From IMG/VR virus record IMGVR_UViG_2593339199_000003, positions 41,082 to 105,081 of that record: DNA of 64,000 nt; one strand, given 5' to 3'. Origin of the DNA: a virus (lineage: Duplodnaviria; Caudoviricetes). Shown here one piece after another: positions 29,850 to 62,894 of this stretch. Each line of letters begins with the position of its first letter. Within the stretch, counting starts at the first letter, position 1. Both the position numbers and the translations under genes were made by a program. A model generated the notes under the pieces. That model was not told the DNA's origin. It saw only the letters and a list, made by a program, of their open reading frames with translations, and ran no database searches.

Positions 29850-29850
29850 T

Positions 29851-31335: not shown

Positions 31336-31385
31336 CACGTCTCACCTCTTTCATGAAGTAAGGAAAAGCGGGAGTAGGTTTTCCC

Positions 31386-33734: not shown

Positions 33735-33818
33735 GCTCATTCACCTCTTATTCCTTGTATTCAAAGACAGCACAAAGCCCAATGTCTGCAGCTGCCGAAG
33801 TTTGCAGGAGCTGCCATA

Positions 33819-40100: not shown

Positions 40101-43100
40101 GTTCAGCACGTCCCATACCGTCTTGTCGTACAGGCTAATGTTGATACCGTCCTCGTCGCCCTTGCCGATTCCGAAGAAATTGCCGAGCTTGTTCCAGAAG
40201 CTGTTCTCCTGGAAGCGCAGCAGACCGGTCGTCTTGTAAATGTTCTGCGTGATCTCATTGCGCTGCCGATCCTCAAAGGCGCCGTTGAAATTGATCGCAA
40301 GGTGACTGACTGGCGGCCCCGGCATGCCGAAGTGCATGATGCCGAGTGAGTGCTGCTGGTAATCCGCATTGCTGAACTGCGTCTTGAGGTCCCCCCAGAA
40401 GCCGGTGTGGTCCGTCAGGATCTCATCGAGGATCTCAGTCGGTTCCTTCTTGCTGAACACCCAGCCGCGGGTCGTATCGCCCGGAGAGGCTTTCAGTTTG
40501 TGCGTCAACTCGATGCCGTCGTCCTGGCAGACGGCTGTGATTGTTTCGCCGTTGTTTTGCAGCTGCGTGATGACGCCGTTCATCATCGTCGGCATGTTGA
40601 TGGCGTTGGATCCATACCCCATTCGGAAGTGAACGCGGGCGCCGGTGCGCAAATAGATCGAATTGTACCAGTTCGGATTACGACCGCGGCGCGCCTTCTC
40701 TGCTTCACGCGCGAGCGAAGCGGGATTGAACATGAGCTGCACGATATCCCAGCCGTTCGTGTTCGTCAGGTCAAAGCTTTTAGCCGCGTCATCCAGCGAA
40801 CCGAAGACGTTCGACATCTCGAGCACCAGCGTGCTGGAGGCTGTCTTTCGGCTGTTCGTATACATGATATCCATGACAGCCCGGTAATTGAAGTAGTTGT
40901 CGGACATCTTGGTCGCCGCTACGAATTGCCCCTCATCAATGAAGAACAGCAGGAACGTCGGGAACGCCCTCACCAGCCGGCCGCGGCGGTCGTACTTGCG
41001 CATATCATGAAAGCTCTCGCGGAAGGTCACGTCCATATCGGCGTAATCTTCCTCCGTCAGGTTGCTCTCCTGGAACTGCGCTGTGTCACTCGTGGCGCTT
41101 GCCGTTTTGTAGTCGGCCACCGGCAGCGTACTGTATTTCTCCGTGAGCTGCGCTTCGGTCCACCTGCCGATCTTGTCCACCTTGCTGAGCACTGTCTTGA
41201 TCAGATTGACGATCAAGTACGGCATCTTCTTGTTGCTGTTCAGCAGTAGATTGTATTCCCGCTCGTAGCCGAGATACATGGCGATCGCGCCGACCCAGAT
41301 AGCCTTTTGCTTCTGTGTGCTCGTCAGGCCGAACGTCGTATAGATGTTGTCTCCGACCAGATTGACGCCGGCGACAATATCCAGGTAATGCTGCATCAGT
41401 TTACATCCTTGCTCAACGTTGTACTCGATGTTGCGTGCAAGGCTGTTCGGATCCCCCATGAGCGGGCTGACGCGCATGACGCCGATGAATGATGCCTCCC
41501 GGATGAAGTTCTCATCCTTGAAGTAGCGCAGGTCATGCATCTGTAGGATCGGCACAGACGCTGTGGTCACTTCGATATTGCCGAGCTCTTTATTCGCTCC
41601 GGGCCCGACCGTGTAGAACTGGCGCATCTGCGGATCAAACGTTTTGGCCAGCGCCAGCATCAGCACTTGATCCACGCGAGAGACGGTATTGTCGGACTGC
41701 GCGTTGGCCACGTCCTGCGATTTCTTTCGAATCAGCGTCTCGATGTCTTGAACGGACAAGTTTACGGTATCGACTGAGCTCGGTGTTTGCGTGGACGCGA
41801 CGGGCGACGGCGTGGTCTGCTGCTTCGCTGCAATGTCATCCGTGACTACTTGGCCAGGCTCGACGCTTCCCGGCACGACCGAGGCCGATCCATTCATGGA
41901 GTCCCGCCACTCCGATGGCGTCGTCGAGTTGGCGTTCATGTACTGATCGAGTTCTTCCCCATAATCGATCGGGTCATTGTAGATCAGGAAGAAGTCAGGA
42001 TCGACGTAGACGCCATTGTTTAGATTCGGGATTACGAAGCCGGCATCCGCCACCTCTTTGTACGTCGGCAATTCGAGGTCTGGATAGAGCTCGACATTCT
42101 TCATGAGTTCCTTGACCTTTGATTCGTAGATCGCCCGCTTCTGGAAGTCTTGGTCGCTCGTCCAGTCGGCGAGGCCGGCAAACTGCAGCCAGTCCCGTGA
42201 AGCAGGATCATCAAACGGATTCCACCAGGCGTAGTTACTGAGCTCGAACGGGATCGTCTTGTTATTCGCCGAATCGTAAAGCATCTGCGTTTCTTCCAGG
42301 CGCTTGGCTGCCCGGTTGAAAGCGGAGAGCGTCAGCGTGATTTCATGCACGCCGGGCTGCCCTTCAACCGTGCTGGACACCATGTCTTCAATGACGACAT
42401 ACGTACAGCCAAACAATCGGGTAAGCTGATGGTCGAACTCGATAAAGCCATTCGACAGCACCGAATGATATTCCCGATTCAGATACGTAGAACGGCGAAC
42501 CAGATTCTCCAAGCTTCCAAGGGCTTCTGGATCATCGGCTTTGAAACGCGCAACATATACGGCATCTTGCGATCCTAAGTATTGATGGGTTGGCGATTCA
42601 TGCATCTGAATCTGGGTCGGCGTGATGATATTCTGGTAGCCGACGCTCAGCTCCTGCAGGTACAGGCCGGGGATATCCCAATTGTCCATTCGAAACTCAT
42701 TCGTCTGCAGCAACTTATAAATATCATCGCCGTACATCTTGTCGATCTCGCTGTCAAACATGACCTGCTTGGCTTCATCATAGAAGCCGTGTGGCACGCC
42801 ATCCTCATCCTTGCCTAATGGCTTTGGCACTGGGAAGATACCGCCGATCCAGGTCCAGTCTTCTTCATCGAAGCCGGCCTTGTCGGTTTTGTCATCCATC
42901 CATAGCTTGATCAGCTTGTCGCGCTTGTCCTTCCAGTCCTTCATCGCTTCCAGGTCTTCTTCTGCGGCAATACGAAACATGTATTCATTATGCAGGTCGA
43001 TCTGCAGTGGCTCATAGAAGACAAGGTTTCGTTTTGGATTCGGCTCCAAGCTGCGACGATAATGCCAGCGAAACAGCGGCCAGTTGAACATCTCCTCGTA

Positions 43101-43550
43101 GCTGCGCTCCGACTGGTCGAAGATGTAGGAGAACGGATTGAACGCGTACATCTGAACCTGCGCCATGAGGCAACCGGGGAAGCCATCAACCGTCTGCACA
43201 GAGATCGATGAGATTGTGACAGCCTCTACCTGATACGTGTCGTTCAGGAGCATGTTCGTGACAGGCAGGAATGGACACTTGCGGACCTGTGCCAGAAGCG
43301 GACGCAGCTCATTGTTGATGCTCTGCAGGCCCGGGAAGAACAGATTCAGTTCAATAATATGGTCAAAGTGCCCGGCCGATTTCACCATACTGCTACGGCT
43401 GCGGAGCACATTGACCTTTTCGTTTTTCATTCGCTTGGTTACGGTGATTGCGGTCGGGGGCACATAATACTGTGAATCCCCGATGCGCAAATGATGATCC
43501 CGTAACGCCCCATAAAGGGCGTCACGGTCATCCACTCCGATCGTAGACAT
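37152..43550 (-). CDS. Baseplate hub/tail-associated lysin (2132 aa): degenerate SLT fold, gp27/gpD-like hub, GH73 glucosaminidase, M15 peptidase
   Basis: Hub motifs GARVHFRMGYG...NGVI...CQDDG and VMGDPSVKPYD...VREVNH. GH73 AAWETGWG...NNLFG...YASD..W. M15 VTSTYR...SWH..GFAVDI...HVH. Confidence 0.85.
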   Translation of the reverse strand: MSTIGVDDRDALYGALRDHHLRIGDSQYYVPPTAITVTKRMKNEKVNVLRSRSSMVKSAGHFDHIIELNLFFPGLQSINNELRPLLAQVRKCPFLPVTNMLLNDTYQVEAVTISSISVQTVDGFPGCLMAQVQMYAFNPFSYIFDQSERSYEEMFNWPLFRWHYRRSLEPNPKRNLVFYEPLQIDLHNEYMFRIAAEEDLEAMKDWKDKRDKLIKLWMDDKTDKAGFDEEDWTWIGGIFPVPKPLGKDEDGVPHGFYDEAKQVMFDSEIDKMYGDDIYKLLQTNEFRMDNWDIPGLYLQELSVGYQNIITPTQIQMHESPTHQYLGSQDAVYVARFKADDPEALGSLENLVRRSTYLNREYHSVLSNGFIEFDHQLTRLFGCTYVVIEDMVSSTVEGQPGVHEITLTLSAFNRAAKRLEETQMLYDSANNKTIPFELSNYAWWNPFDDPASRDWLQFAGLADWTSDQDFQKRAIYESKVKELMKNVELYPDLELPTYKEVADAGFVIPNLNNGVYVDPDFFLIYNDPIDYGEELDQYMNANSTTPSEWRDSMNGSASVVPGSVEPGQVVTDDIAAKQQTTPSPVASTQTPSSVDTVNLSVQDIETLIRKKSQDVANAQSDNTVSRVDQVLMLALAKTFDPQMRQFYTVGPGANKELGNIEVTTASVPILQMHDLRYFKDENFIREASFIGVMRVSPLMGDPNSLARNIEYNVEQGCKLMQHYLDIVAGVNLVGDNIYTTFGLTSTQKQKAIWVGAIAMYLGYEREYNLLLNSNKKMPYLIVNLIKTVLSKVDKIGRWTEAQLTEKYSTLPVADYKTASATSDTAQFQESNLTEEDYADMDVTFRESFHDMRKYDRRGRLVRAFPTFLLFFIDEGQFVAATKMSDNYFNYRAVMDIMYTNSRKTASSTLVLEMSNVFGSLDDAAKSFDLTNTNGWDIVQLMFNPASLAREAEKARRGRNPNWYNSIYLRTGARVHFRMGYGSNAINMPTMMNGVITQLQNNGETITAVCQDDGIELTHKLKASPGDTTRGWVFSKKEPTEILDEILTDHTGFWGDLKTQFSNADYQQHSLGIMHFGMPGPPVSHLAINFNGAFEDRQRNEITQNIYKTTGLLRFQENSFWNKLGNFFGIGKGDEDGINISLYDKTVWDVLNICAAVGEDFIVAVHPYDFRNTIFMGKPYFPIAYAYDVAGGKSMQDTNLASYDIQAVSKPFRQYHIYDSWTSIVENQIIATTENMYTVAVGVYSNEGNLDTTQAIYVDTNIWPEMQRTVQIDTQLNAQGIRLIENIPIIGHFLNKLPKWYFDEWTAIKIAAAGLRDYVKQMYDGYLTVMGDPSVKPYDICYFNDTFNNMSGPIEVREVNHLLNFETGYITMIKPDAVVVNSDRHVMTMLQGLTHTAAYMIMSYTLRAVLRNMGYKGAFPVMNAIWSVVKRRYEAMKGKFDATKVGSKLMEWTTAAGEELSKPRTIETKNYRVEIDPVTKEVRRYDPVTDEMKNRWTKSGILKDMASKIENFTEKDAQALFDNLYEALYDKRFKGYNKIDAAKLAKLKTGASKMMATGFKVTAKAGRWGKRGWEMATGALAIFGGPVGIAAYLIETAVVEIACACISEFIERFLFTRKSCIIAVLRRDGIEFSAGINGHMGSVIGDSPDFWQRFLTNDVVGGVLAGFLGADTSQYAPIASDDDLSMQASGSSVDFSQFASSFFEKHRYKVIADTQAAEVYNFEVGEATKQLQGQVARQEADFNRKPTYEEDRTLLTSDDLTSSLGGSDSSGGSGYAAGTSFDTMDLNQPSGISADAIDAAFEGTGLAGLGKYFKQLEISIPSAPSPLALQGDGAGSARVMSGLYLAAHAAWETGWGTSRIFKDKNNLFGYGAVDSNPYDGAYTFATPQDCIYYAANKIKTNYLTAGGKYYNGSTLVGMNIKYASDKNWHNGIAQIMAKIAKHDPNFLPPTPDAPKASSGTNGTSAEVPTTTGSAGMKQYSLTPEQAKSVLVSTTKVTSVNFYEPIMQAPLIRQASADLLQQLGAVYTAKSGGKKLMVTSTYRKPDGSLSWHNTGFAVDIDTPDMKVVAGKLRFTNSADRDMVEMVIDLAVQAGFDGILHADDDLLNQMRKKYPKNTFTTRADHYNHVHLHYPTK

Positions 43551-43563
43551 AGGCTCTCATCTC

Positions 43564-46500
43564 CTACGAGTATTGCTGGACTTTATCTCGATACCAGATA
43601 CGATTCAGCCTGTTGGCGTTATCGGATTGGTTCACGGACATGTTAATCTTCCCGCCGTTATACCCGGATCGCTGCATAGCTTGTCCGAGCATCGGGCCAA
43701 AGTTCTGCGACCCGCTCCCCTGCGCGGAAATCTTAATATTAGCGCCGGAGTTGCCGGCATCAATCGGGGCCATTGCGGGAGCTGGTGTTCCGCCATATAG
43801 GGCTGCTGCATCTGCTCTCGCTTCAGTTTCAGACTCGGGATTGTAAGGCATTACAGGATCTTTATCATTAAATGTATTGTACCCCATTATACCTGCAAGC
43901 GCTAGACCTCCGATGAGCGCCGCCTTTTTATTTCTGGGCCCGTTCTTACCGTTAAAGAACTTGTCCATCGCCCCCGAAATCTTCTCGTAGGCCTTCGGGC
44001 CGAGCATCCCGCCGGTGCCGTCTTCGATCATCTCGGCAATGGTGCCGGCCGGTCCCTCAAGACGCTTGGTCATCGGCGAGGAGCTAAATGGCTCCAGCGG
44101 ATTCACCTTGCGGTATTCGGGCGTCAGGCTCGGTTGTTGCGGCCTGTCGATCGTCATTCCGCCTTCGCTACGCAGGATGTCTTGCAACGGATTCAGGAAT
44201 GGATTCGCCGTCGTGGCGTTCGGGTTGCGCCCCATAATCGTGTCTACGATTTCCTCCAGGCTGTGATCGCCCAGTCTCATGCCTTGGCTCGTGCCGGCCC
44301 GCAGCTCCGGATTGTCCATCCCCTTCTTCATAACATCGAGCGCGCGGGTTAGGTGCCCCATCGCCAGTTTCAGGTTGTCTCCGAATTGACCATTGAAGTA
44401 TTTGTTGTCCACCTCGATGGCCTGCTTCGTATTTCCTCGCTCAATGGCACTCAATAGATCGGCAGCGCCTGACTTCGTAAATAACCCCTGGCCGGTGCCG
44501 TGCTTGGAGGAGATCGTTAAGTCTTGCTCCAGGCCTTGCCCCAGTTTATAGATCTGCCCTTTGACTTCGGGGCTATCGGCGTAGAAGGTGTCCGCAACCT
44601 GACGCATCCGATAGTTGAGGTCCGATGCGCGGCCGATGAACTCCTTACCGGATTTCGCCATGATCTCCGGCAGCTGATTGGCCTCAAACCGATCCACGGA
44701 CTCAAGGCCTTTCTCTTTTCCGCTTCGGACATTGTAATCCTCGAAGATGCTTTTCAACGAGAACTCTCGAGAGCTATCAAGCTTGAGTTCGCCCTCGTTA
44801 AGCGCCTGCTCATACGTCATCGAGTTATTAAGCGCATTCTGGTAAGCCTGCTCGTGACGGGCCGCTCTTACCTCCCGCTGCTCAGCATGATTACGGGCCA
44901 GCTCCTCTTGCACGCCCTGATCGTGAATTGCGACGATGTGGTTGTAGTCACCGTCTGAGTCTTCCTTCAGCAAGGATGCAAGCAAAGACGTCGTATTATG
45001 GAAGCCGGCAGGCACTGATGGATCCATCTTAATTTTGACAGACTGGATGGCGTTCTCCGTAAAGGTTGGAAAGCGCAGGTCCGGCGCATAGAAATCTTTC
45101 TGAAGCGCTGGATTATGAAGTGCGCCTTCATTGCCGCCGAGCAGGTGCTCATAAATCCCCATCGTCTTCGCTTCGTTCGGGTTAATGAAGACCGTTTCAC
45201 CATCGAGCCGCATCGATTCTTCGATCGGCATGACCTTTGCAAGGCCGCTGGAGGATGTCGGCATATTCACCTTCAGTACGCTGTTACCCGTTTGATCACT
45301 GGATGCCGTCACGGCAGATACGGTTCCTGCGAAGTATTTGCCCAGGCTTCGATTCAAGCCCTGCATGGCCTTCACTTGCGCTGATTCGCCGTCCGCCTTG
45401 GTTACCGCCTCGGCGCGCCGATAGATGTCTGCAATGTGGCGCCGCATATCACGCAGCCAGATTTCTTCCCCTTTGCCGTCCGTCTTCGTGAACGGGATGA
45501 AGACCCGATCCATTTTACGGCCTTCCACTTCCGGCAGTATGGCTTCTTTCTGCCCGTTCACATGAATGTTCGGGAGCTCCATCCAGAAGCCATGGTAGTC
45601 ATTTTCACCGACCAGCTTCCGGACGTGTTCGTCATCCAGAATCGTGCGTGAGATCGTCGTGAGGTTCGTGTCCAACGTCGGCAGCGCATGGAAGTCGTGG
45701 AGGCGCAGCGTCCGGTTTTCGAAGTCAGGATCGAATCCTGGCCCTTCAACAGCACCGCGCAAAGCATTGACCATGCCGATCGCTTCCTGCAGCCGGCCGG
45801 TTTCTTTCGACTGATCGACAAGGTAACGGAACATGTGCTCCCTGGTCTTGTCGAGCCCTTTGACTTGCAGCATGCCTAGTTCACGGAAGCCGTACTTGAC
45901 GCCCTTCACATCGCCGCCTTCTTTATAGGCCACGTCGATCAAATTGCCGTTGTCATCCACATTGTACTTAAGGACGGCTCGGCGCTGCTCATCAACGACG
46001 GTCGAATAGTTTTGCACCTGCGCGATCCGCATAGCCTGCACACCTGTGATGTAGCCGGCGCTATTGGATTCGGCAAGCCCAAGCCCGAATCGATCGTTCA
46101 ACTTTCCGTAGAGCCGACCGAAGTTTCGGTAGTCCATACGCTTGTATTTCGCACTCACGTCATCGAACAGCAGCTCGCCATTCTTGTACGATGCATTCAC
46201 GCCGATCCGGCCCTGGTTGATCATCCGCATCGCTTCTTGGATATCTGCCTCATTAAGCACGTTCTCTTTTATCGCGTTCTGCATGGTGTACATCAGCTTG
46301 TTGGCCTGACCGCGCAGCGCGCCACCAAGGTCACCGTGCTTGCCGATATTCGGGTTGTAGACGACACCGACGTTTTCTTCGCCGAACAGCTCCTTCAAGA
46401 ACTCGGATCCGTAGCCGTATTGGCCGTTGTGCATGTTGCCGCCGATCGTGCCCTTCTCGATATCGAGGTAGACCTTGTTGGCCTGCTCGGTATATTCAAT

Positions 46501-49500
46501 GGCAAAGGCGTTGTCGGTTGATCTTGCCGATGCGATCCGGCCGGCATACTTCTGATCATAGAATACGGACTGCCGTTGCCCGTCAACGATGCGGGTACCC
46601 AACCGGTCTCCCGGGCTGATCACCATGTCTCGCCGGAGCTGCCCGTCAGCATCCAGGTACTTGCCATCCCACTTGATCTCATCGCCTCGGTAATACTTGT
46701 AGTTCTTCGTCTGCAGGCGATTAACGAGATCCTTGTTAAAGATCATCTGCTGTTCGTAGACGTTCGGCTTCCGGAGTACATTAACGCTTCCGTCCGCCCG
46801 TAGTATCCCTTCTTCTGTCAAGATACGACGTATGTTATCGTCGCCCTGCGCCTGCGCGATCAAGTCATCTACCCGGCGGGTAACATCTGCCTGGTTGGCC
46901 ATGACAGTATTCACGTAGACCTCCGGCTTGTACGGATAGAGCTTACTGTGCTGCCGCTGAACAGCCGTTGATACCATGTGGTTGGTCGAAGCCACGCCTT
47001 CTGCCTCTTTCAAGGAAGCTTCCAAGTCCTTGTCGATCCGGTAGCTGTTCATCGCCTGAACGGAGTTGTCTCGATTCTGTACCGTGAAATGGCCGTAGGC
47101 GAATAGATTTCGAGCATCTATGGAGCCGATGCCGCCCCTTGCTACGACGTCTGCTTTAGCCGAGGAGTAGAAGCCCCGTCCGAAGCCGTTCTTCTCCAGC
47201 CACTCCGGCATGTCGCGACGGATCATAAACTTGGCTTCGTCATGCAGGTCATCCAGTTTGACGAATGGAATCAACTGTTTCTTGCCGGCATTCAGAATCA
47301 CGTCCGTATTTCGGAAGCTCCGGTCGGTCAACGTGCCGTCTTCATAATACTGCTGAATCATCGCGGCTGCCGGATACTTGAGGCCCTGCTTGAGCAAGTC
47401 GGCTTCTGTATTCGTGACGAGCAGGTTCTCGTTAAAGTCCCGCTTCACGCCGGAGAGCTCGCTGACAAAGTTGTTCATGAGTCGGCGGGCCGAGGCCGTG
47501 GCCTCCGATAGCTCCCCATCCTTCAGCTGCTGCGCCATCGTATTGATGTTCCATTCCGATCTGTGATCGAGCAGGCGCGGATCCGCCAGCATATGCCCCA
47601 TCTTCTCCACGGTGGAAATCTCACTATTCACGCCGTTGACGCGGATGATATCGCGTGTGGCATTGAAATGTCGGTTGCCGTAGACCAGCGTGCCCTGCTG
47701 ATTAATCAGCGGTACCGTGAACTCGAACGCTTTCGGATGCGCCTCCGATGCGCCGCCGGCCATATGGCGAAGCACGCTTGCACTGTCATCTGGATGGAAC
47801 ATTGTGATGAAGGCTTGGGTCGCCTCCGGATTCATCGAGAGCGCCATGTTCAAGCTTGGATTCATCTTCTTCAACGTGCCCATCATACCTTCGATGGCCT
47901 GGCGATTATTCGGATTCATCCCCGTGAACTTGTGCTGACGATCCAGCTTAGCGAACATATCGCCGATATCTGTCCCTGGCCCCGGGATAAAGCCGTTATT
48001 TAAGAGGTAGCCGCGCATACCTTGCGTCTGCTTGATGGCCGATTTCACCAGTTGCTGGCCCGCTTGTTTGGAAATCCTCTCCACGGATTCCCGGCGCCCC
48101 AGCGACTCCTCTGTAATGCGGCGAATCGTCAAGTGCTGTTGCTCCATCAGATCAAGTGCCAGCTGCTCAATCGATGCCGGGATCGTCAGCTTGCGATCAT
48201 GAATCCCGGTGATAGCGCCCTGCACATAATCGTCGTCGATGATGCCAGATCCCTTCAGCGAGGAAAGCAGGATCTTAAAGCGCTCGGCCCGCTCCACAGC
48301 TTTCTCTGTCTCTGCCAAGTCTCCTGTCCCTTTGAAAACATAGCTTCGGAATGAATTGATGGCATTGTTGGCATTCTGTAGCGACACGCTGACGCTCTTG
48401 CCGGTTAGGCGGTCACGGAACTGGAAGCCATTCTGCTCGTAAGGAAGCGAGGCACGAACGGTTTTATGCTGGCCGGCCGATTCATTCACGCGCTCATGAA
48501 AGAGTGACCAGGCAATGTTTTTCTGCTCGGCTTCCATGCCGGAAGCGTCGATGGCCTCGATGGCGCCTTGGTACAGCGAGTGCTCGGACATGAGGCGCGG
48601 GAGCATCTTCCAGAATGCCTTCTCCTCGTCCGGATTGTAGACGAAGGACTTGCTCGTGCCATCCCATAGGGAATTGAAGTTCATCATGCCCTTCATTTCA
48701 TCGCGGCTGATACGCTGCTTGAGCAGGCGGCCGATGATCTTTTCGCGTGCCTGATCGTATTGCTCTGGCGTCCAGGAGCGCATGAACTGCCCGTTCTTCA
48801 TCGTCAGCTCGTCCAGCTTGCGGGAGGCCTCTGCCTCGATTGCGCTCCAGCGGCCGGAAGTAAACTTATTGTAGACTGCGGCATTGGCGTACATCCGCTT
48901 AGCGGCATCGAAGCCGGCGGTCGATTTCTTGTCGAGACTGAACAAGCTTTCGTACCGGCGGCGCCCGAGGTCAGACTCACGCAAGTGCTGGATCTGCTTG
49001 CGCATCTTCTTACTAATGTTGCTCATCGGCGTGAAGCTGCGATGATAGAAGTCGGCAATCTCATAGGCGGCATTCTCGCCCTCACGGACAACAAACGAAC
49101 GGAGCTGCGGATTGTCCTGGTTCACGAACTCAATCGCCCATTTCGGGACACCACCAGAAGACAAATCGCGAACGCCAGCCACCCGGTAGAAGGACTCGGC
49201 ATTGATGACGTTCTGGTTAAAGCCCGGACGGAAGATCTTATAGGAGCCGTCTTCCGTAAGCTCCGCTTGATAATCCAGCTGGCTGCCCTTGTAGTTGCGC
49301 ACGCCGCGCGTGGCAAACAGCAGATCGCTCGTCGTGAGCGGCTTATTGCTGTGCATGAGATAAGGCGTTCTCTGCCCCAGCTGCCTTGGCTTGTAGTCGG
49401 CCTTGACCTCCGTGGATCCAAGCAGATCGTCAACGTAATTCCAGGTGTTCGCGACAAGTCCGCCGACCCCATTCATGCCGGTATCGAAGCTTGCGGAGTG

Positions 49501-50613
49501 GGAGCCTGCTGTGCTCATGCCGAGCGTGCGCCGCCATTCGGCAAGCGACCATGGGCCCTCCTCGAACGGAAGCGACGATGGACGGCCGTGCTGCTCGTGA
49601 AGTTTGATCGGATTACGCGCCACAGACTGCATCACGCGGTAATAGTCCATGTGATTCTGCGGCAACACCATTTCCTTTCCGGTGATGGATGAGAACCGGC
49701 GCATCCGCTCCAAGTCGAAGCTGTCGCCATTCATCGTGACGAAGTAGCTGTTCTTGTGCTTGCCGACGAACGCATTATACTCATCAATGGCACTCGCATA
49801 ATCTGCACCGTGCTTCACCAGATTCTTAATTCCATCTCGCATATGACGCAGATACTGCGTCTGGTTGCGCGTGATCTCATCGGTCAGAATGGTTTTGCCG
49901 CTCAAAACGGAGTTGATAGCCGAGTTATGCATCACTTCAGCCCCAAACGTAGCAGCACTGATTCCGTTACCGCCGATCGAGGAATACCGTATCAAGTCGA
50001 CGACTGTCCGCTGTTCGCTTGGATTCAGCAGTGCAAATTGCCCTATCTGCACCTTACGGATCAGCTTGTTAAGCTCACCTTGCATGTGTTTGTTTGGAGC
50101 AACCAGCTTATTGAATCGATGCGTCTTGGATTCGCCCGTGTATTGACCCCCGCGGTAATTAATGCCATTGGCTGAGATCTCTGAGATGAAGAAGTTCTTC
50201 GAGTCCGTATCTCCGAGCGTCTCGATGTCGAGGCCGAAGAACCGGCCAGGACCACCGCCTCCCCCCTTGGCGCGTCGTGCAAAATCGCGAAACGACTCGA
50301 TATGACGCTGCGCATCAATCGCGAACCCGCTATAAGGGTCAGCGCTGCCGACCGGGTTCAGGAAGCTCCAGATGTTGGTGCCGCCCATATTGATTACGCC
50401 GCTCTGGGTAGGCAGCGCTGGCATCTTATTGATGGCATCATTCAGCCGGATCAGAGATGGGTTGACGCCAGACCGCTCCGTGGCGGGCCGGGTTATCGGG
50501 TTGTATGCCGACAGCATGACCCGCTTATGGCGATCGGCCGGCACATATTCCAGGCCGGCTCCGATCCCCGCGTTAACATTTGAATAGAGTTGATCGTAAT
50601 TTGTTGTCGCCAT
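43564..50613 (-). CDS. Putative virion-associated single-chain two-barrel RNA polymerase with an N-terminal DEDDh exonuclease (2349 aa), in the tape-measure position
   Basis: DEDDh residues D129/E131/D300/H372/D377. Beta-like motifs YEQQMIFN, LDADG..PGDRLG, NK..EKGT, VVYNP, GVKYGFRE. Beta'-like RFPT..AIQ and DSDGD (1885-1889). C-terminal hydrophobic segment. Confidence 0.8.
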   Translation of the reverse strand: MATTNYDQLYSNVNAGIGAGLEYVPADRHKRVMLSAYNPITRPATERSGVNPSLIRLNDAINKMPALPTQSGVINMGGTNIWSFLNPVGSADPYSGFAIDAQRHIESFRDFARRAKGGGGGPGRFFGLDIETLGDTDSKNFFISEISANGINYRGGQYTGESKTHRFNKLVAPNKHMQGELNKLIRKVQIGQFALLNPSEQRTVVDLIRYSSIGGNGISAATFGAEVMHNSAINSVLSGKTILTDEITRNQTQYLRHMRDGIKNLVKHGADYASAIDEYNAFVGKHKNSYFVTMNGDSFDLERMRRFSSITGKEMVLPQNHMDYYRVMQSVARNPIKLHEQHGRPSSLPFEEGPWSLAEWRRTLGMSTAGSHSASFDTGMNGVGGLVANTWNYVDDLLGSTEVKADYKPRQLGQRTPYLMHSNKPLTTSDLLFATRGVRNYKGSQLDYQAELTEDGSYKIFRPGFNQNVINAESFYRVAGVRDLSSGGVPKWAIEFVNQDNPQLRSFVVREGENAAYEIADFYHRSFTPMSNISKKMRKQIQHLRESDLGRRRYESLFSLDKKSTAGFDAAKRMYANAAVYNKFTSGRWSAIEAEASRKLDELTMKNGQFMRSWTPEQYDQAREKIIGRLLKQRISRDEMKGMMNFNSLWDGTSKSFVYNPDEEKAFWKMLPRLMSEHSLYQGAIEAIDASGMEAEQKNIAWSLFHERVNESAGQHKTVRASLPYEQNGFQFRDRLTGKSVSVSLQNANNAINSFRSYVFKGTGDLAETEKAVERAERFKILLSSLKGSGIIDDDYVQGAITGIHDRKLTIPASIEQLALDLMEQQHLTIRRITEESLGRRESVERISKQAGQQLVKSAIKQTQGMRGYLLNNGFIPGPGTDIGDMFAKLDRQHKFTGMNPNNRQAIEGMMGTLKKMNPSLNMALSMNPEATQAFITMFHPDDSASVLRHMAGGASEAHPKAFEFTVPLINQQGTLVYGNRHFNATRDIIRVNGVNSEISTVEKMGHMLADPRLLDHRSEWNINTMAQQLKDGELSEATASARRLMNNFVSELSGVKRDFNENLLVTNTEADLLKQGLKYPAAAMIQQYYEDGTLTDRSFRNTDVILNAGKKQLIPFVKLDDLHDEAKFMIRRDMPEWLEKNGFGRGFYSSAKADVVARGGIGSIDARNLFAYGHFTVQNRDNSVQAMNSYRIDKDLEASLKEAEGVASTNHMVSTAVQRQHSKLYPYKPEVYVNTVMANQADVTRRVDDLIAQAQGDDNIRRILTEEGILRADGSVNVLRKPNVYEQQMIFNKDLVNRLQTKNYKYYRGDEIKWDGKYLDADGQLRRDMVISPGDRLGTRIVDGQRQSVFYDQKYAGRIASARSTDNAFAIEYTEQANKVYLDIEKGTIGGNMHNGQYGYGSEFLKELFGEENVGVVYNPNIGKHGDLGGALRGQANKLMYTMQNAIKENVLNEADIQEAMRMINQGRIGVNASYKNGELLFDDVSAKYKRMDYRNFGRLYGKLNDRFGLGLAESNSAGYITGVQAMRIAQVQNYSTVVDEQRRAVLKYNVDDNGNLIDVAYKEGGDVKGVKYGFRELGMLQVKGLDKTREHMFRYLVDQSKETGRLQEAIGMVNALRGAVEGPGFDPDFENRTLRLHDFHALPTLDTNLTTISRTILDDEHVRKLVGENDYHGFWMELPNIHVNGQKEAILPEVEGRKMDRVFIPFTKTDGKGEEIWLRDMRRHIADIYRRAEAVTKADGESAQVKAMQGLNRSLGKYFAGTVSAVTASSDQTGNSVLKVNMPTSSSGLAKVMPIEESMRLDGETVFINPNEAKTMGIYEHLLGGNEGALHNPALQKDFYAPDLRFPTFTENAIQSVKIKMDPSVPAGFHNTTSLLASLLKEDSDGDYNHIVAIHDQGVQEELARNHAEQREVRAARHEQAYQNALNNSMTYEQALNEGELKLDSSREFSLKSIFEDYNVRSGKEKGLESVDRFEANQLPEIMAKSGKEFIGRASDLNYRMRQVADTFYADSPEVKGQIYKLGQGLEQDLTISSKHGTGQGLFTKSGAADLLSAIERGNTKQAIEVDNKYFNGQFGDNLKLAMGHLTRALDVMKKGMDNPELRAGTSQGMRLGDHSLEEIVDTIMGRNPNATTANPFLNPLQDILRSEGGMTIDRPQQPSLTPEYRKVNPLEPFSSSPMTKRLEGPAGTIAEMIEDGTGGMLGPKAYEKISGAMDKFFNGKNGPRNKKAALIGGLALAGIMGYNTFNDKDPVMPYNPESETEARADAAALYGGTPAPAMAPIDAGNSGANIKISAQGSGSQNFGPMLGQAMQRSGYNGGKINMSVNQSDNANRLNRIWYRDKVQQYS
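43842..43855. promoter_or_regulatory. Intragenic copy of the recurrent palindromic motif (TGTAAGGCATTACA)
   Basis: 13/14 match to TGTAATGCATTACA; in an AT-rich patch with a minus-strand TATAAT at 43891-43886, about 290 bp upstream of the hub gene. Confidence 0.55.
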
Positions 50614-50628: not shown

Positions 50629-53600
50629 TTACATCAAAGATCCCATATTGTTGCGCAGATAGTTATCAATTTCGCCGCTGCGATCTTGCTCGTACTGCAC
50701 GCCAACTCGTGTCGCAGCCCCGCTTGAAGGCGTCACGGTCACGTTGACGTTCTTCAGTCCTTGTCCTTGGAGCACGTCTTGGATATTGCGCTCCATTCGC
50801 TTGTAGCTGAAATCCGATTGCTGGTACATATTGTTGCCCTGGTTCGTCAGGTTCGGAGTCATGCGCGAGGCTTCCACGTCGTCCGGCCAGAAATTGAAGT
50901 CACTCAGATCCAGTTTCTGATTCTGCACGACCTTGAGCTTGATGCTCTCAAGATCGAAGTCCGGCCGCCAACCGGCCCAGTTTGCATCCGGCAGCGCGTA
51001 TTTCTGGAAGTAGTCTTCAAGTGGCGGCACGTATTCGTCCCCATAATCCCAAAGTGCTTTATAGATGCGCCTTTCATTTTCAGGCACAAGCTGCAGGATA
51101 CGTTCCCGGTCCCGCTCCGGTGCATTCACGAAGTCATCGAAGAACCACTTATCCTTGGTCGGAAATGCTCGGGCCACCTTCATCCGATCGTCGTATGGAT
51201 CGATCGCATATAAGGTTTCTTCACTTTGCTCTTTATATTGTAATGCCTGACGTACAATATCGGGAAGCATTATTTCGTCCCAGCCGCCCTCTTGCATGTC
51301 ATTCAGTTCTTGATTGATTGCTTTGCGGCGATCGACCCATCCATCCGGCTGTTTTAAATAAAGCTGTCGCTTTTCTTCGTTAAGCTGTTGGCGCCGCTCC
51401 TTTGTGTTCGCCTGCTTCTGCTCGATGTCATTGATGAAACCATCGACATCGTAGCCCGACGCTTCAGCTTCCCGCTTTGTCGCTTCATAGAGTCCGGAGT
51501 ATTTCATATACTTCAAGAGGTCGAAGTATTCATTGATCTCGTTCTCTTTGCGCCGGCGCTCCGGGATCCACGTCTCGCCGTTATGCGTGTATTCATAATG
51601 CCTTGCATACCCGTGGCCAAGGCCGCCAACCAGCGCGCCTATAATGGCGCCCGCTGCGACCCGCTTGCTGCCGCCGCCCCCGAGTACGCCCATAATGACC
51701 CCGCCGGTGATTCCGCCGCGCATCATCGATTCCAGTGTGTCGTGCCGGAAGGCCGACTGAAAGCCTGGAATTAGATAGTCGCTCGTCAGGAAGTTGCGCC
51801 AGGTCGCCCAGTCCTTGCCGTAAACTTGATCCCGCTCGTATTCTTCGAGTGCAGTGCGCACCTGCAGGAACTTCGTATTAAGCGGCGATTCGTAGTGGGC
51901 GATCGACTCCCACCGTGTGCCCTCTGCAATCTCGTCCGGCGTGAAGCGGGCGAAGACTGATGGTGCGGAGAAGTCCGTCAGGTTCTCCTTCATGAGGCCA
52001 CGGCGCAGGATGTCCTGGTTGATATTCTTGAGTCCATCGAAGACAACAGCGCGCATCGTGCCGTACTGGTCATCGGAGATCCGCTGGCTCTGGTCCGCAT
52101 TGATCCCCACCGTTACCTTATCCCCTACCCCGATGTACGAGTCGAGCACCCCGTGTGCTGCCGGCTTGTAATCCATACCGGCCAGCCGGATCGGCGTATC
52201 GCCGTATTCCTTTGTAAGGAAGGTGTAGTCGTCGAGCATCTTGGTGACCGTCACTTGCTCTTTTTCCAGTTCGGCGTATTTAAAGCGATACTCCGTGAAG
52301 TCGTATTTCTGTTTTCGCTTGGCCACCTGACGCTTGATCTCAGCGGCCTGCTTTCGGACCTCCGGATCTGTTTCATTGTCGACCACATAGTCCCGCCAAA
52401 ACTTGTACTCGTCGCTCCACGGCGCCACGTCGGCCAAGATCTTGAACTTGTCGAAGCTGCCGTAGCGTCCGGTCTGATCGGGATGAAGCGGGTTCAGCTT
52501 CTCATAGGCATCGCCAGGCAGCCGGTAATCCCCGTGGGCCACTTTTGTATAGGGATCGCCTACCTGGAAGTTGATGAAATAATCGCCCCCCGGCAACCAG
52601 TCCGGCATCGTGTTGCGAATCGGGTTGTATTCGTCCAGCTGGCCATCATCTGCGCGAATGAAACGACGCCCGATCTCGGAGATCGGTCCGCCAACAGATC
52701 CGAGGTTCATGCCCCAAAACCGGTTCGACAGGTTGTTCGCGGCATCCGCCTTCTGGATGACCATGTTACCGGTGTACGGGTCGTCGCCGGCCACTTCATC
52801 AGCAATCCACTTGTAGACGCCGAGCGGCTCCGCCCAGTTCTGCGCGGATTCCTGCAGCCGCCAGTTGATGCTGCTCGGATCCTTCATCTCCCGCAGCTTA
52901 CGGTTTCGAACTTCATTTCTGTAGGCGTACTCCTCCGCATGCATTGCGCGCGGCTTTGTCTCGACCATAGGCTCGTCGGTTCCGGCCATAGCAAACATCC
53001 GATCCATGCTGTAGCCTTCTTTGGCGATGTTGGCTGGCACGTACATGGCCTGGCCAGAGGTAATGTCCTGCGCCACGTAGGCGCCCGTTTGATTGCCCTG
53101 CTCATCCAGCTCGCTCGAGACGAAATACTTCACCGGTGCGGCAACGGCACCCGGATTCACATCACCGGTTCCGGCCCATTTGCCGCTATATGGCGCGCCG
53201 TAGCTGGTTGGCCCTGCATAGACGACATCCTCGGTCCGGCCTGCCGGCGACACCCGTGTGACGACCGGTTCAGTCGGACGATTGCCGAGCCCTTCATTCT
53301 CCTGCTCGATGAGTACCGGATCACCCCAGTAATCCGGATGCATGCGGCGGCTTGGTTTCACGAGCTGCCCGATTGTTGCATTGCCGATATCGCCAAAGAA
53401 CATTGTGTTCGGATTGAACAAGGAGCCGGTCATCATGTAAGGCCGGTCATAGTAATGCTTCTGCTCCCAATAGTATTCATTTCCGTCCAGCATGCGCTTG
53501 AATATCCCGAGTGGATTCTCGAAGGTCGGAAGGATATTCATCTCACCATAACGTTCTTCGCCGGTGAGGCTTGTATTGGAATACTCCCAGTCGCTCATCG

Positions 53601-56478
53601 CCAGGCGCCAGTCGTTCGGCCTGAACTCGGAAATGCGGTCGCCACGGAAAGCTGTCTTGGATCCCCATAGCCACCAACGACCTTTGCGCACTTCCTCAAC
53701 GCCATTTTGCAGGTAGTTCTGATATTCCTCGCCAGTGAAGGTGTCTTTCTCGTCAATCGGCGTGCCCGGTGCGAACAAGGCGCCTAAGACGTGGCCGGGC
53801 CCAAATTCCCCGACGCCGGGCAGATACCAATCCGGCATGGCGGCGAAGTGCTCAATGCCCGGATGCAGCATTTGGCGGTGCGCCAGCCCCTCGTTCGTGC
53901 CCATGGCATCACGTGTGAAGGCTGCCGAGAGATCACTGCGAGCCCGCATGTTCTGCCAGCGCGCCGTGATGCCCATGCCCGTATGCTTGTCCACCTCGTA
54001 GTCTGCATACTGGTAGCCTTCGTACGCCCCGTAGAGCGGCAGGAACCGTTTCAGGAACAAAGAGGACACCATCTTCAGCGGACTCGATAGGGAGTCATCT
54101 GAGAAGCCTAAGCCCCAGTCCCCGAGCGCATCCTGTAGACGGAACCATGGGTACTGACCGCCGAAGATCGAGAGCGTCGTCACATCTTCCATATTGCGAC
54201 GGCCGGTCGTCCAGCTGAGCTGCTTGGCGATGTCCTTAATCGTGCCAATGCCTTCCCAGCCATTGATCGCTTTGTTTACGTAGAGGAACTCGTCGTTGAC
54301 CGTGTTAGGCGGCTTCTGTCCGGTGAACTTTTCATAGATCGGGTTGTTGCGCTTCACGGCTTTCATGACGTCGCTTCGGAACTGCGATGAGAAGGCGCCC
54401 TGGCCAAGAATCATGTGATTGACTTCATCGACGGCAGCGGTTGGGTTTCCATAGGCATCTCCACCCGCCTCCCGAAGGAAGTGATAGTTCAGCAGAAAGT
54501 TGGCATTCTCCGCTTCATCGGTATGAATGTGCCGGCCTTCATACAGGTCATTGAAGACCTTGCGAAGGTTCAAGTTGCGCGGGCTTGTGCTGTTCGGCGC
54601 CGTGATCTGCCTGATAAGTTCCATGCTGACATCTCGCTTGATCTTATCCTGTCCGGTTTGAATGCGGGTGTGTTCACCAAGAATCAGGTTACTTTCACCG
54701 ATCGGACGCTTGGCGGCCAGGAATGAATCTGGGTCGCGGCTATAATTGCGCCACGTCCGCTTGATCGCGGTGTCACCTGGAATGTCAGTGGCTTCACCCA
54801 TGAACCTGAACAGCTTCATAATGTGCTCCTCATTCGAGAAGCTGATCTCGTTGTCATCCAGAAACTGCTGAATGTTGCCTGGCAAGTACGTGCGGATCCG
54901 ATTCAGTACGCGCGGGGAGAGCTCTTGCGTATACTTGTCGAAGTAGCCGCGCATCGAACGCAAGCTCTCCTCATCCACACCTCGGTTCATTGCCTCGGTC
55001 ATGATATTGCGTTCCCACTCTGGGCTCCAGAGCTTGGTTACCTGACTTAGCAGTTTGGGCCCGACAGCATCCTTATCCTGCTTGCCGATGTCGAACAGTT
55101 TTCGGATCGCGCCGCGCTTATCCTCCTGCGTTGTCATGAGACCGCCGGTGCTGCGGTGAAGCTTGGCGATCGTGCCGAAGCGGGAGGACGTCGCAAACAT
55201 CTTACGCTTCTGGTTGAGAACGGTCAGCTCCTTGAGCGGATCGTTAATAGCCGCCACATCATACAGTGGCACGAAGTCGCCATTGATATAGACGAGGTTC
55301 TGGTCCAGCGTCGAGTTGATATCCTGCCCCATCTGAGCCTGCAAGCTCTGGTGCCGAGTGCCGCGGCGGACAACGCGGAAGCTGCCGATCTCACGCGCCT
55401 CCCGGATGTTCAACTGGTCACGTAGGTGCATGAGGCCACCCGGGACGGTGTTGGCTGCCTTTTTCTTGAGCCCATGCATCATCTCGTCGAATACTTTATA
55501 GTCGGTGTAATCGACGATGTTGCCGGCAGCATCTTCTTTAACAAACAGATTCGAGTCGAAGATTTGCTTGCGGAAGTCGCTACTGCGTTTGATCATGTGC
55601 TCGAGGTCGACTCGCGTGGCATCATCCAGATTGATCCGGCCAGAACTGTGCATGGCAAGCACGTCCTCAACGGTCGCCTGACGCTGGCCGCGGATGTATT
55701 TCTTATGAGCCCATTCTTTTCGCACGACGCCGCCGGCATTCTCTGCAGCCTTTGTCGTGAGTTTATCCTGCATGCGTGATACGGCTGCCTTGTACTCACT
55801 AGAGTCTTTGTAAACCGTATTGCGGTGAACGCCGCGGGCTTGCTCGGCGAGCTGAATCAGGTTGTCTTCGATGCCCTGCTGCCGCAGGAGTCCACGGAAC
55901 TGTTCGTCGGAAAAGTTATGAAGAAAGTCCATGTCATCCAGGTTGCCAACCTTGAACGCTTCACGGACGCGGTGCGCATCTTCCCGGCCGGCCAATTGGC
56001 CGAGCTCCAGCATGACGTCCCGATGCCGCAGTTCGCTCTGGATGCCATAAGGCACAAGCTCTTTGACGTTCTGATTGACCTGACGGATATACCGCTGCAG
56101 GTCGTACTCGCGCGCGCTCGAGAAGTCATTCAGCCGCTGCTTGCGATCATCGACGATCCGGCGACGCCGGTCCAAAAAACTGCGCCGCATCCGGTCGAGC
56201 CGCGTGCTGCTCAGATCCTGCAGGAGCGTACCTTCATGATCGAGCGTCTCGCGGAGCGCCATGAGCGAGCCCTTTCCTTCTGTCCCGATGAAACGGGCAG
56301 CTTGCCTGAGCGCACCGGTTCGGTGCAAGACAGCAGCAGCGCCAATGCCGATAGCCGCTTTGACGAGCAAAGATCGGGCCGGCGATGTATCTTCATTATC
56401 CGATAAGAAACGAGTGAAGGGACGATCATCCGTCCCGTAGAATTGTGCATATTTGGATTGTCCGTTTTCATCGGCCAT
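50629..56478 (-). CDS. Tape-measure/ejection-like protein (1949 aa) with a degenerate SNase-like domain and hydrophobic segments
   Basis: First giant gene after the chaperones; largely helical; Gly-rich hydrophobic hairpin GGITGGVIMGVL...AAGAIIGALVGGLG; IRLAGMD...DQYG...NINQDILRRGL. Confidence 0.7.
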   Translation of the reverse strand: MADENGQSKYAQFYGTDDRPFTRFLSDNEDTSPARSLLVKAAIGIGAAAVLHRTGALRQAARFIGTEGKGSLMALRETLDHEGTLLQDLSSTRLDRMRRSFLDRRRRIVDDRKQRLNDFSSAREYDLQRYIRQVNQNVKELVPYGIQSELRHRDVMLELGQLAGREDAHRVREAFKVGNLDDMDFLHNFSDEQFRGLLRQQGIEDNLIQLAEQARGVHRNTVYKDSSEYKAAVSRMQDKLTTKAAENAGGVVRKEWAHKKYIRGQRQATVEDVLAMHSSGRINLDDATRVDLEHMIKRSSDFRKQIFDSNLFVKEDAAGNIVDYTDYKVFDEMMHGLKKKAANTVPGGLMHLRDQLNIREAREIGSFRVVRRGTRHQSLQAQMGQDINSTLDQNLVYINGDFVPLYDVAAINDPLKELTVLNQKRKMFATSSRFGTIAKLHRSTGGLMTTQEDKRGAIRKLFDIGKQDKDAVGPKLLSQVTKLWSPEWERNIMTEAMNRGVDEESLRSMRGYFDKYTQELSPRVLNRIRTYLPGNIQQFLDDNEISFSNEEHIMKLFRFMGEATDIPGDTAIKRTWRNYSRDPDSFLAAKRPIGESNLILGEHTRIQTGQDKIKRDVSMELIRQITAPNSTSPRNLNLRKVFNDLYEGRHIHTDEAENANFLLNYHFLREAGGDAYGNPTAAVDEVNHMILGQGAFSSQFRSDVMKAVKRNNPIYEKFTGQKPPNTVNDEFLYVNKAINGWEGIGTIKDIAKQLSWTTGRRNMEDVTTLSIFGGQYPWFRLQDALGDWGLGFSDDSLSSPLKMVSSLFLKRFLPLYGAYEGYQYADYEVDKHTGMGITARWQNMRARSDLSAAFTRDAMGTNEGLAHRQMLHPGIEHFAAMPDWYLPGVGEFGPGHVLGALFAPGTPIDEKDTFTGEEYQNYLQNGVEEVRKGRWWLWGSKTAFRGDRISEFRPNDWRLAMSDWEYSNTSLTGEERYGEMNILPTFENPLGIFKRMLDGNEYYWEQKHYYDRPYMMTGSLFNPNTMFFGDIGNATIGQLVKPSRRMHPDYWGDPVLIEQENEGLGNRPTEPVVTRVSPAGRTEDVVYAGPTSYGAPYSGKWAGTGDVNPGAVAAPVKYFVSSELDEQGNQTGAYVAQDITSGQAMYVPANIAKEGYSMDRMFAMAGTDEPMVETKPRAMHAEEYAYRNEVRNRKLREMKDPSSINWRLQESAQNWAEPLGVYKWIADEVAGDDPYTGNMVIQKADAANNLSNRFWGMNLGSVGGPISEIGRRFIRADDGQLDEYNPIRNTMPDWLPGGDYFINFQVGDPYTKVAHGDYRLPGDAYEKLNPLHPDQTGRYGSFDKFKILADVAPWSDEYKFWRDYVVDNETDPEVRKQAAEIKRQVAKRKQKYDFTEYRFKYAELEKEQVTVTKMLDDYTFLTKEYGDTPIRLAGMDYKPAAHGVLDSYIGVGDKVTVGINADQSQRISDDQYGTMRAVVFDGLKNINQDILRRGLMKENLTDFSAPSVFARFTPDEIAEGTRWESIAHYESPLNTKFLQVRTALEEYERDQVYGKDWATWRNFLTSDYLIPGFQSAFRHDTLESMMRGGITGGVIMGVLGGGGSKRVAAGAIIGALVGGLGHGYARHYEYTHNGETWIPERRRKENEINEYFDLLKYMKYSGLYEATKREAEASGYDVDGFINDIEQKQANTKERRQQLNEEKRQLYLKQPDGWVDRRKAINQELNDMQEGGWDEIMLPDIVRQALQYKEQSEETLYAIDPYDDRMKVARAFPTKDKWFFDDFVNAPERDRERILQLVPENERRIYKALWDYGDEYVPPLEDYFQKYALPDANWAGWRPDFDLESIKLKVVQNQKLDLSDFNFWPDDVEASRMTPNLTNQGNNMYQQSDFSYKRMERNIQDVLQGQGLKNVNVTVTPSSGAATRVGVQYEQDRSGEIDNYLRNNMGSLM

Positions 56479-56514
56479 GACCTTCACCTACTCGTCTGCG
56501 TATTTATACCAAAA

Positions 56515-60036: not shown

Positions 60037-60076
60037 TTGATCTTATTAGTTTAGTTTATTGAACCTAACCAAACCT

Positions 60077-62875: not shown

Positions 62876-62894
62876 GTTCAGTCTCCTCCTTTAA

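Follow-up and report, generated by a model that had tools for sequence, protein, structure and literature searches.

A predicted DEDDh exonuclease domain joined to a two-barrel RNA polymerase core in a giant tail-module protein of a 0305phi8-36-like phage

The window analyzed here is a stretch of 64,000 nucleotides (positions 41,082 to 105,081 of IMG/VR virus record IMGVR_UViG_2593339199_000003) and forms part of a 105-kb record that is classed as a provirus and estimated to be 53% complete. One gene of its tail module, located at 43564..50613 on the minus strand, encodes a giant protein of 2349 amino acids (translated list of open reading frames, ORFs), which we call P0001. We consider it likely that P0001 combines a virion-type RNA polymerase with a catalytically active exonuclease domain of the DEDDh type, and that it acts on nucleic acids during entry of the phage DNA. 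The chain is ordered as a disordered leader, the exonuclease domain, a region of 730 residues, a two-barrel RNA polymerase core, and a hydrophobic segment with a C-terminal motif, the last two making up a putative C-terminal anchor. All structural statements about P0001 rest on predicted models, and the alignments behind these are shallow, with 10 rows for the exonuclease (alignment A3) and 21 rows for the polymerase.

The original prediction had placed a full set of five DEDDh catalytic residues in the N-terminal part of the protein, and re-translation of the gene returned the same residues at the same coordinates. ExoI reads FFGLDIETLGD (50209-50241, minus strand, as are all features of this gene) and contains D129 and E131; ExoII reads NGDSFD (49714-49731) and contains N295 and D300; and ExoIII reads HSASFD (49483-49500), with the spacing H372-x4-D377, in which H372 is the "h" of DEDDh. 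One more conserved aspartate, D323, follows ExoII within the sequence HMDYY (49645-49647). The domain that holds these motifs, identified by predicted fold as well as by the motifs themselves, spans residues ~100-400 (49414..50316).

Relatives of P0001 were found in several ways. A word-index search returned three full-length relatives (63, 46, and 31% identity at the N-terminus), and a scan of IMG/VR returned seven related loci (27-58% identity). When the profile of A3, which is a 10-sequence alignment of the N-terminus, was run against 1.84 billion representatives, 78 proteins matched at E<=1e-3, and 56 of these are giants with the domain near their N-terminus. The exonuclease-polymerase family comprises at least 56 clusters at 50% identity. 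One of the related loci is on a 194.7-kb contig in an assembly of Oceanobacillus profundus, and the hosts are therefore taken to be Bacillota.

The catalytic residues proved invariant across this family. An L-INS-i alignment covered the first 700 amino acids of 59 giants (the 56 profile-found proteins together with P0001, P0003, and P0004), and D129, E131, D300, H372, and D377 were each present in 59 of 59 sequences, many of which share less than 20% identity. D323 was retained in 58, and N295 and E145 in 57 each; position 299 is phenylalanine in 53 and tyrosine in four more. Within A3 only 23 columns are invariant, the same five catalytic residues among them. This strict retention of the metal ligands and the general base, while other columns are mostly variable, argues for selection for catalysis.

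A family-specific insertion, mostly helical in the secondary structure of the model, separates ExoI from ExoII (residues ~172-288; 49750..50100). Across the 59 homologs, the distance from ExoI to ExoII ranges from 145 to 214 residues (median 175), and the insertion accounts for ~100 residues. It contains conserved positions of its own, R209, Y210, S211, and H229, with Y210 found in 55 of the 59. P0001 thus shares with DnaQ-like DEDDh exonucleases the DxE of ExoI, the NxxxFD of ExoII, the Hx4D of ExoIII, and an RNase H-like fold, but differs from the known enzymes in this ~100-residue insertion, in its fusion to an RNA polymerase, and in being encoded by a phage tail-module gene.

A DnaQ-like fold, whose absence the original prediction had regarded as fatal to the idea, was indeed predicted. 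In the AlphaFold2 model built from A3, residues 101-400 have a mean predicted local distance difference test (pLDDT) score of 76-97 in ten-residue blocks, mostly at least 87. Foldseek comparison with the PDB placed TREX1, TREX2, the DnaQ domain 8h18, and the PolC exonuclease at the top (E 2e-4 to 3e-3, probability 1.0). With VIA-align, the model superposed on the exonuclease part of a DNA polymerase (9qrn, Z 15.0), Escherichia coli Exonuclease I (Z 14.4, root-mean-square deviation 3.0, 192 aligned residues), the N-domain of Staphylococcus aureus DinG (Z 14.2), 3'hExo (Z 14.1), and Pol III epsilon (Z 14.1, root-mean-square deviation 2.5, 167 of 176 residues, 17% identity). ERI, TREX, RNase T, Cap18, and others followed at Z 12.6-13.6 (Cap18 at 13.1). 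The best of these matches (Z 13-15) align 165-194 residues and span whole DEDDh domains.

The profile search that the original prediction had proposed gave a divided result: the RNase_T family (PF00929) is reached through relatives, but residues 1-404 of P0001 have no direct Pfam match. The homolog P0027, which matches A3 at E 5e-62, scores 33.3 bits against RNase_T (cut-off 24) and 27.5 bits against the Rv2179c-like family (cut-off 27), and CDS0027 of Moorella phage MTATph1, discussed below, also passes RNase_T. Among 22 short proteins that matched A3, there are matches to RNase_H_2 (in 11), RNase_T (6), DNA_pol_B_exo2 (4), and DNA_pol_B_exo1 (4), and the A3 profile aligns with ExoI and ExoII of archaeal family B DNA polymerases (best E 7.6e-4), where ExoII reads YNGDxFD. 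The direct miss is probably due to the ~100-residue insertion between ExoI and ExoII, which would break the match. Because the direct search is blank, the family assignment rests on fold, motifs, and transitive matches. On these combined grounds, residues ~100-400 are predicted to form a complete DEDDh-type, DnaQ-like exonuclease domain with its catalytic residues under strong selection; conservation in all 59 giants and the match in predicted fold indicate that the motifs are not a product of chance. That the domain is dead, serves a structural purpose (e.g., as a DNA-end-binding "pilot" module), or is a chance assembly of motifs is thus very improbable, even though no curated profile matches P0001 directly and so large an insertion is unusual, given five catalytic residues kept in 59 of 59 often distant homologs amid mostly variable columns, a fold matching whole DEDDh domains at Z 13-15, and close homologs that pass the RNase_T cut-offs.

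The original prediction had called the carrier of this domain a putative virion RNA polymerase, and the predicted fold bears this out. The model of residues 1130-2100, made from the 21-sequence alignment, has a pLDDT of 85.3 and a predicted template-modeling score of 0.82, and identifies this region as a single-chain, two-barrel RNA polymerase core in which a beta-like module precedes a beta'-like module. The beta-like (second-largest-subunit-like) module covers residues 1130-1620 (45754..47226), as delimited by the model and VIA; it includes a candidate basic pair, K1380/K1387 (46453-46476), each basic in 58 of the 59 giants, and a candidate acidic residue, E1287, which is acidic in 56. The beta'-like module with the catalytic barrel covers residues 1622-2100 (44314..45750), on the evidence of the model, VIA, and Foldseek. 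Its catalytic motif is DSDGD (D1885-S-D-G-D1889; 44947-44961), and an RFP (R1847-F-P1849; 45067-45075) lies 38 residues upstream of the Asp triad. An R-x-P about 35-45 residues before the triad is listed among eight invariant residues of two-barrel polymerases (PMC2919709).

Foldseek matched the polymerase model to at least 500 PDB chains at E<=1e-3, and every one among the matches listed is a large subunit (the largest or the second-largest) from a multisubunit RNA polymerase; the matches of the beta'-like half include Thermus beta'. All of the top 16 matches in a wide VIA search were RNA polymerases. Residues 1130-1620 superposed best on chain C of the AR9 (Z 15.8) and phiKZ (Z 15.2) non-virion RNA polymerases, Pol I A135 (Z 14.5), and bacterial beta (Z 14.4), and residues 1622-2100 on Pol I A190 (Z 10.9), Rpb1 (Z 10.5), archaeal A' (Z 10.4), and Mycobacterium tuberculosis beta' (Z 9.0). 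Single-chain enzymes aligned across both halves: QDE-1 at Z 9.9 (365 aligned residues), P74 gp62 at 8.7, and P23-45 gp96 at 7.7 (323 aligned). The best structural matches of the two halves are the AR9 and phiKZ non-virion enzymes and cellular beta and beta'; these are multisubunit, whereas in P0001 both modules lie in one chain that is fused to other domains. YonO and QDE-1 types resemble P0001 in being single chains in which the beta-like barrel comes first and the beta'-like barrel second. Pfam RNA polymerase families, including the RdRP family PF05183, gave no match to P0001, and a YonO/QDE-1-like (PF05183) identity was rejected for lack of a PF05183 match.

The fusion itself is a property of the family. 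A D.DGD motif occurs at 76-83% of the length in 52 of the 59 giants and another DxDxD at the same place in six, so that 58 of 59 combine this motif with the N-terminal exonuclease motifs; the sole protein without DxDxD is one of 1708 amino acids. All 58 with the motif have RxP 25-55 amino acids upstream of it. The domain is N-terminal of the polymerase, as had been proposed, but does not begin the protein, for residues 1-100 form a leader modeled at low confidence.

The family includes two proteins of cultured phages: gp034 of Bacillus phage vB_BauM_KLEB27-3 (KLEB27-3; 2434 amino acids, annotated "structural protein") and GAKEdson_0920 of phage Edson (2515 amino acids, "hypothetical protein"). 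The former is 99% identical to P0046, which matches A3 at E 3e-15, and has KADYDGDF at residue 1933, where a sub-threshold match to Pfam RNA_pol_Rpb1_2 is also found. The latter has KADHDGDN at residue 1996, and its N-terminus aligns with A3 at an hhalign probability of 97.4%. Both resemble P0001 in genomic slot, length, N-terminal exonuclease motifs, and a DxDGD at ~79% of the length. The polymerase region of P0046, which is nearly the same protein as gp034, shares 16% identity with that of P0001 in alignment A5. A literature search turned up no paper on KLEB27-3.

We examined the genomic setting of the P0001 gene. On the minus strand, the order is tail sheath, five small ORFs, an ORF of 1952 amino acids, the P0001 gene, and a hub/lysin of 2132 amino acids. 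The sheath gene, which marks the tail module, lies at 60077..62875 (phrog_16991, E 5e-182). The upstream neighbor of 1952 amino acids (50629..56487) is a homolog of 0305phi8-36 gp145 and of Moorella CDS0026, with BLASTP identity to the latter of 39% over the C-terminal 750 amino acids (E 1e-153); it had no Pfam or PHROG match. The stretch aligned to CDS0026 contains a glycine-rich hydrophobic segment. The downstream neighbor (37152..43550) is a baseplate hub/tail lysin with a glucosaminidase domain (PF01832, E 9e-12; phrog_20474, 1200 bits), and its nearest relatives by tblastn are in Moorella phage MTATph1, Bacillus phages Edson, vB_BceM_WH1, and KLEB27-3, and 0305phi8-36 (gp147). In 0305phi8-36 itself, the sheath gene is followed by tube, chaperones gp143/144, gp145, gp146, and hub gp147. 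The P0001 gene therefore stands where 0305phi8-36 has gp146, and its tail module is that of a jumbo myovirus resembling 0305phi8-36. The giant-giant-hub order is kept in seven of seven related IMG/VR loci, and the slot likewise in four cultured relatives.

The 0305phi8-36 record annotates gp145 and gp146 as found in virions by mass spectrometry, and gp146 as a "hypothetical tape measure protein". According to Hardies et al., orf146 was assigned as the tape measure mainly by tail length, and its last 60 residues alone could be aligned to counterparts (PMC2147016). P0001 shows a weak, in-register likeness to gp146 and Moorella CDS0031 at the C-terminal hydrophobic segment and terminal motif only; a C-terminal profile compared with CDS0031 gave an hhalign probability of 29%, weak support for a shared anchor.

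Two other occupants of the slot bear on the relation between the nuclease and the polymerase. Like P0001, gp146 and CDS0027 of MTATph1 lie between a gp145-like protein and the hub, and both carry ExoI-type motifs in mid-protein (YLDIETTGL at residue 1223 of gp146, VLDLETT at residue 870 of CDS0027), while DxDxD is absent from both. CDS0027 scores 24.2 bits against Pfam RNase_T (cut-off 24) and aligns to ExoI-ExoII of A3 with a probability of 60% (E 8e-5). In gp146, only ExoI of the mid-region aligned to the exonuclease profile (hhalign probability 13%), and Pfam gave no match. BLASTP of P0001 against CDS0027 and against gp146 was not significant, and no other sequence similarity to them was detectable. 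The presence of an exonuclease in gp146 is therefore suggestive only. Overall, the exonuclease seems to be the more general feature of the tail-slot protein, with the polymerase present in one large branch. The occurrence of exonuclease motifs without DxDxD in CDS0027 and gp146 speaks against an exonuclease function that strictly depends on a polymerase within the same polypeptide.

Two observations on these proteins may be added. Residues ~1215-1480 of gp146, where YLDIETTGL is followed after ~215 residues by GQNVADADW and VLDTL, resemble a DnaQ-type domain with a long insertion. In MTATph1 (11772-19128, locus L001), the tape-measure-slot gene appears to be split by a transposase gene, CDS0028, so that CDS0027 has the exonuclease part and CDS0031, just ahead of the hub, has the conserved anchor motif of the C-terminus.

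The closest known parallel is gp96 of the Thermus phage P23-45, a tape-measure-fused virion RNA polymerase (PMC10770324; structure 8h2m). In the account given there, gp96 is, like P0001, a tape-measure-slot giant with a single-chain two-barrel RNA polymerase, a DxDGD, and C-terminal membrane-type segments, and P23-45 has, as relatives of the P0001 phage probably do, a second, non-virion polymerase. P23-45 is, however, a siphovirus, and its gp96 has 5002 amino acids with the polymerase at the N-terminus, whereas P0001 comes from a phage with a contractile tail and has its polymerase at residues 1130-2100, behind the exonuclease. The predicted polymerase fold of P0001 is also nearer to multisubunit beta and beta' (Z 14-16 and 9-11) than to gp96 (Z 7.7). 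The word "exonuclease" has 0 occurrences in the main text of the P23-45 gp96 paper (PMC10770324).

A separate ORF of the PF05183 (YonO/RdRP-like) family, 1179-1280 amino acids long, is present elsewhere in the genome in three of four near-complete related phages (L012, L013, and L014 in genomes G003, G004, and G002; 33.8-44.5 bits), whereas neither G001 nor the half-complete record of the window itself yielded one. Phage 0305phi8-36 also encodes a separate YonO-like polymerase, orf99 (PMC2147016; PMC7824862). These separate proteins are probably a second, non-virion polymerase, and their presence in the relatives suggests that such phages use two polymerases, one delivered in the virion and one not.

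Several points weigh against our interpretation. Pfam and PHROG searches with the whole of P0001 and with residues 1-404 gave nothing relevant at E<=1, the sole Pfam line being DUF5016 (E 0.09); phmmer of P0001 against PDB sequences gave chance-level matches only; and no match at E<=0.01 appeared among 50,697 phage records when these were searched by tblastn, whether with the N-terminus or with full-length P0001. For the polymerase, we infer only from motif likeness that K1380, K1387, and E1287 are equivalent to K1065, K1073, and D814 of beta. A profile search with the polymerase region (word index), aimed at polymerase homologs that lack the exonuclease, returned two proteins, the query and P0002. 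As to the virion, we infer carriage of P0001 from how the genes are ordered and how distant relatives are annotated, and the C-terminus resembles that of gp146 only weakly (BLASTP E 0.56, hhalign probability 8%). More than half of P0001 (at least 1270 of 2349 residues, according to the models) is globular enzyme, so that there is no obvious helical ruler, and the neighbor of 1952 amino acids could be the real tape measure. Finally, the best structural matches of the exonuclease model include both DNases and RNases, and do not distinguish a DNA from an RNA substrate.

If P0001 is a virion protein, it would be carried in the tail lumen with its C-terminus anchored at the hub, by analogy with P23-45 gp96 (PMC10770324). 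It would then be ejected ahead of or with the DNA, and the C-terminal hydrophobic part would anchor in the envelope, so that the enzymes come to lie near the DNA as it enters. As a rule, tape measure proteins have their C-terminus at the tail tip and their N-terminus toward the head, an orientation that would place the exonuclease beside the leading DNA end. The exonuclease would act by two-metal, 3'-to-5' hydrolysis with H372 as the general base, and the RNA polymerase would transcribe pre-early genes. As for the substrate, we tentatively suggest that the exonuclease resects the phage genome as it enters, cutting back the 3' strand at the DNA end or at nicks to leave a single-stranded stretch. 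The exposed strand could be a template or promoter for the attached polymerase, or could let terminal repeats anneal. One related genome has direct terminal repeats.

A further step, which we regard as speculative, is that P0001 is a self-contained entry machine, an envelope-anchored polypeptide that would couple DNA entry, processing of the 3' strand at the end, and pre-early transcription. The resected strand would in that case be the template or promoter form needed by P0001's own two-barrel polymerase. A bolder variant would make the exonuclease a proofreader and have the two-barrel core also synthesize DNA, as archaeal PolD does; no PolD chain was among the best 50 VIA matches listed for the polymerase model.

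An action on RNA is also to be considered, in which the exonuclease would serve the attached polymerase by removing misincorporated or backtracked 3' ends or by trimming transcripts. Such a role would parallel the cleavage stimulated by Gre and TFIIS, or coronavirus nsp14 ExoN. The presence of both activities in one chain in 58 of 59 giants is consistent with it, as is the appearance of RNA-acting DEDDh enzymes (3'hExo, ERI, RNase T; Z 12.6-14.1) among the best structural matches. We nevertheless think it unlikely, since ~730 residues lie between the exonuclease and the polymerase, two-barrel polymerases already cleave RNA in their own active site, and the MTATph1 counterpart with its RNase_T-type domain and gp146 with its DIETTG both lack DxDxD.

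The exonuclease occurs in proteins of the tail slot whether or not they have the polymerase motif, which would suit an injected nuclease for counter-defense or host takeover. Such a nuclease would work independently of the polymerase and, on entry, destroy host signaling oligonucleotides, defense-related nucleic acids such as retron- or primer-like DNAs, or host DNA or RNA ends. Delivery with the first entering material, as the gene position implies, would fit an immediate-early countermeasure, and the CBASS-associated Cap18 (Z 13.1) and DEDDh enzymes that act on small oligonucleotides are among the structural matches. The likeness, however, is to the general DEDDh fold, equally that of replicative and repair exonucleases, and not specifically to any known anti-defense nuclease; moreover, one or a few copies per virion of a membrane-anchored giant seem few for bulk degradation. 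We give this explanation a similarly low probability.

It is improbable that P0001 is an intracellular enzyme of transcription or replication and no virion component at all, with the 1952-residue neighbor as the true tape measure. Most of the chain is globular enzyme, as such a role would have it, and the homology to gp146, the occupant verified by mass spectrometry, is weak and confined to the C-terminus. Set against this are the gene's position, flanked by the gp145-like protein and the hub in all seven loci and the four cultured relatives; the annotation of gp145 and gp146 as virion proteins by mass spectrometry and of KLEB27-3 gp034 as a "structural protein"; the C-terminal hydrophobic segment and terminal motif, as in the slot's other occupants; and the separate YonO-like polymerase that related genomes already carry for that role. 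The neighbor itself may be the true tape measure, or else another protein that is ejected.

DEDDh exonucleases are reportedly allied with viral RNA synthesis elsewhere, in coronavirus nsp14 ExoN with nsp12 and in the arenavirus NP exonuclease. The polymerases in those systems, though, are right-hand, RNA-dependent enzymes of RNA viruses, the proteins are separate after processing, and they are unrelated to tails or to two-barrel enzymes. Virion-delivered RNA polymerases allow phage transcription to start without the host enzyme. To our knowledge, the tape-measure-fused type has so far come from one Thermus siphovirus group only, and we know of no separate proofreading or end-processing nuclease for two-barrel polymerases. 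The P0001 family would thus bring the idea of a tape-measure-slot RNA polymerase to contractile-tailed jumbo phages of Bacillota, with a strictly conserved DEDDh exonuclease added. Should the exonuclease act on the entering genome or on transcripts, the very start of infection would include a step not seen before, and two-barrel polymerases would have gained a new partner activity. The finding also offers a testable function for one large unexplained tail protein of the 0305phi8-36 lineage, and P0001 illustrates how a long insertion can conceal a catalytic domain from standard profile searches.

The original prediction knew of no DEDDh-RNA polymerase fusion, and our literature searches, which covered papers without their supplements, likewise turned up no report of an exonuclease fused with a two-barrel RNA polymerase or with a protein of the tape-measure slot. 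The survey of viral two-barrel polymerases in Supplementary Data 4 of PMC10770324 may list the P0001 family as polymerases.

The remaining parts of the gene are as follows. A Shine-Dalgarno-like GAGGGTG lies just 5' of its ATG, and the stop of the upstream gene is 13 bases before. The N-terminal leader (residues 1-99; 50317..50613) is poorly conserved and longer in some homologs, and most of residues 1-97 have a pLDDT below 50 in the AlphaFold2 model. Homologs range from 2127 to 2902 amino acids, apart from the one of 1708, and their ExoI Asp is at residue 83-281. In P0017, P0022, P0025, P0026, and P0029 it is at residue 241-281, compared with about 100-130 usually, which indicates an extra N-terminal extension of ~150 residues in these five. 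The middle region (residues 401-1129; 47227..49413) has blocks that are conserved within the family; it was without match in Pfam and PHROG searches, and a search of the ESM Atlas with residues 400-1130 gave nothing usable. The C-terminal module (residues 2101-2349; 43567..44313) is defined by alignment A6, with invariant W-Y-R-D-K, and contains the hydrophobic segment KAALIGGLALAGIMGYNT (43873-43926) and the terminal motif DNANRLNRIWYRDKV (43579-43623).

Elsewhere in the window, a frame of 968 amino acids on the plus strand (60059-62965) is nearly co-extensive with the sheath gene and is probably a non-coding shadow frame. A giant protein of 2851 amino acids (15615-24170, minus strand) has PA14, Big_1, Big_2, and PKD-like domains and matches phrog_21285 (virion structural protein); by its domain content it is probably a fiber or adhesin. 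Another giant, of 1744 amino acids, is encoded at 10371-15605 on the minus strand. Between 24001 and 36000 the G+C content falls to 0.50-0.51, compared with 0.54-0.56 elsewhere. Three adjacent ORFs in this part (27549-29873, 29851-31338, and 31386-33740, minus strand) share phrog_17517 (tail protein), 38477, 10667, and 15809, and the stretch looks like a paralogous, perhaps exchanged, tail-fiber or receptor-binding module.

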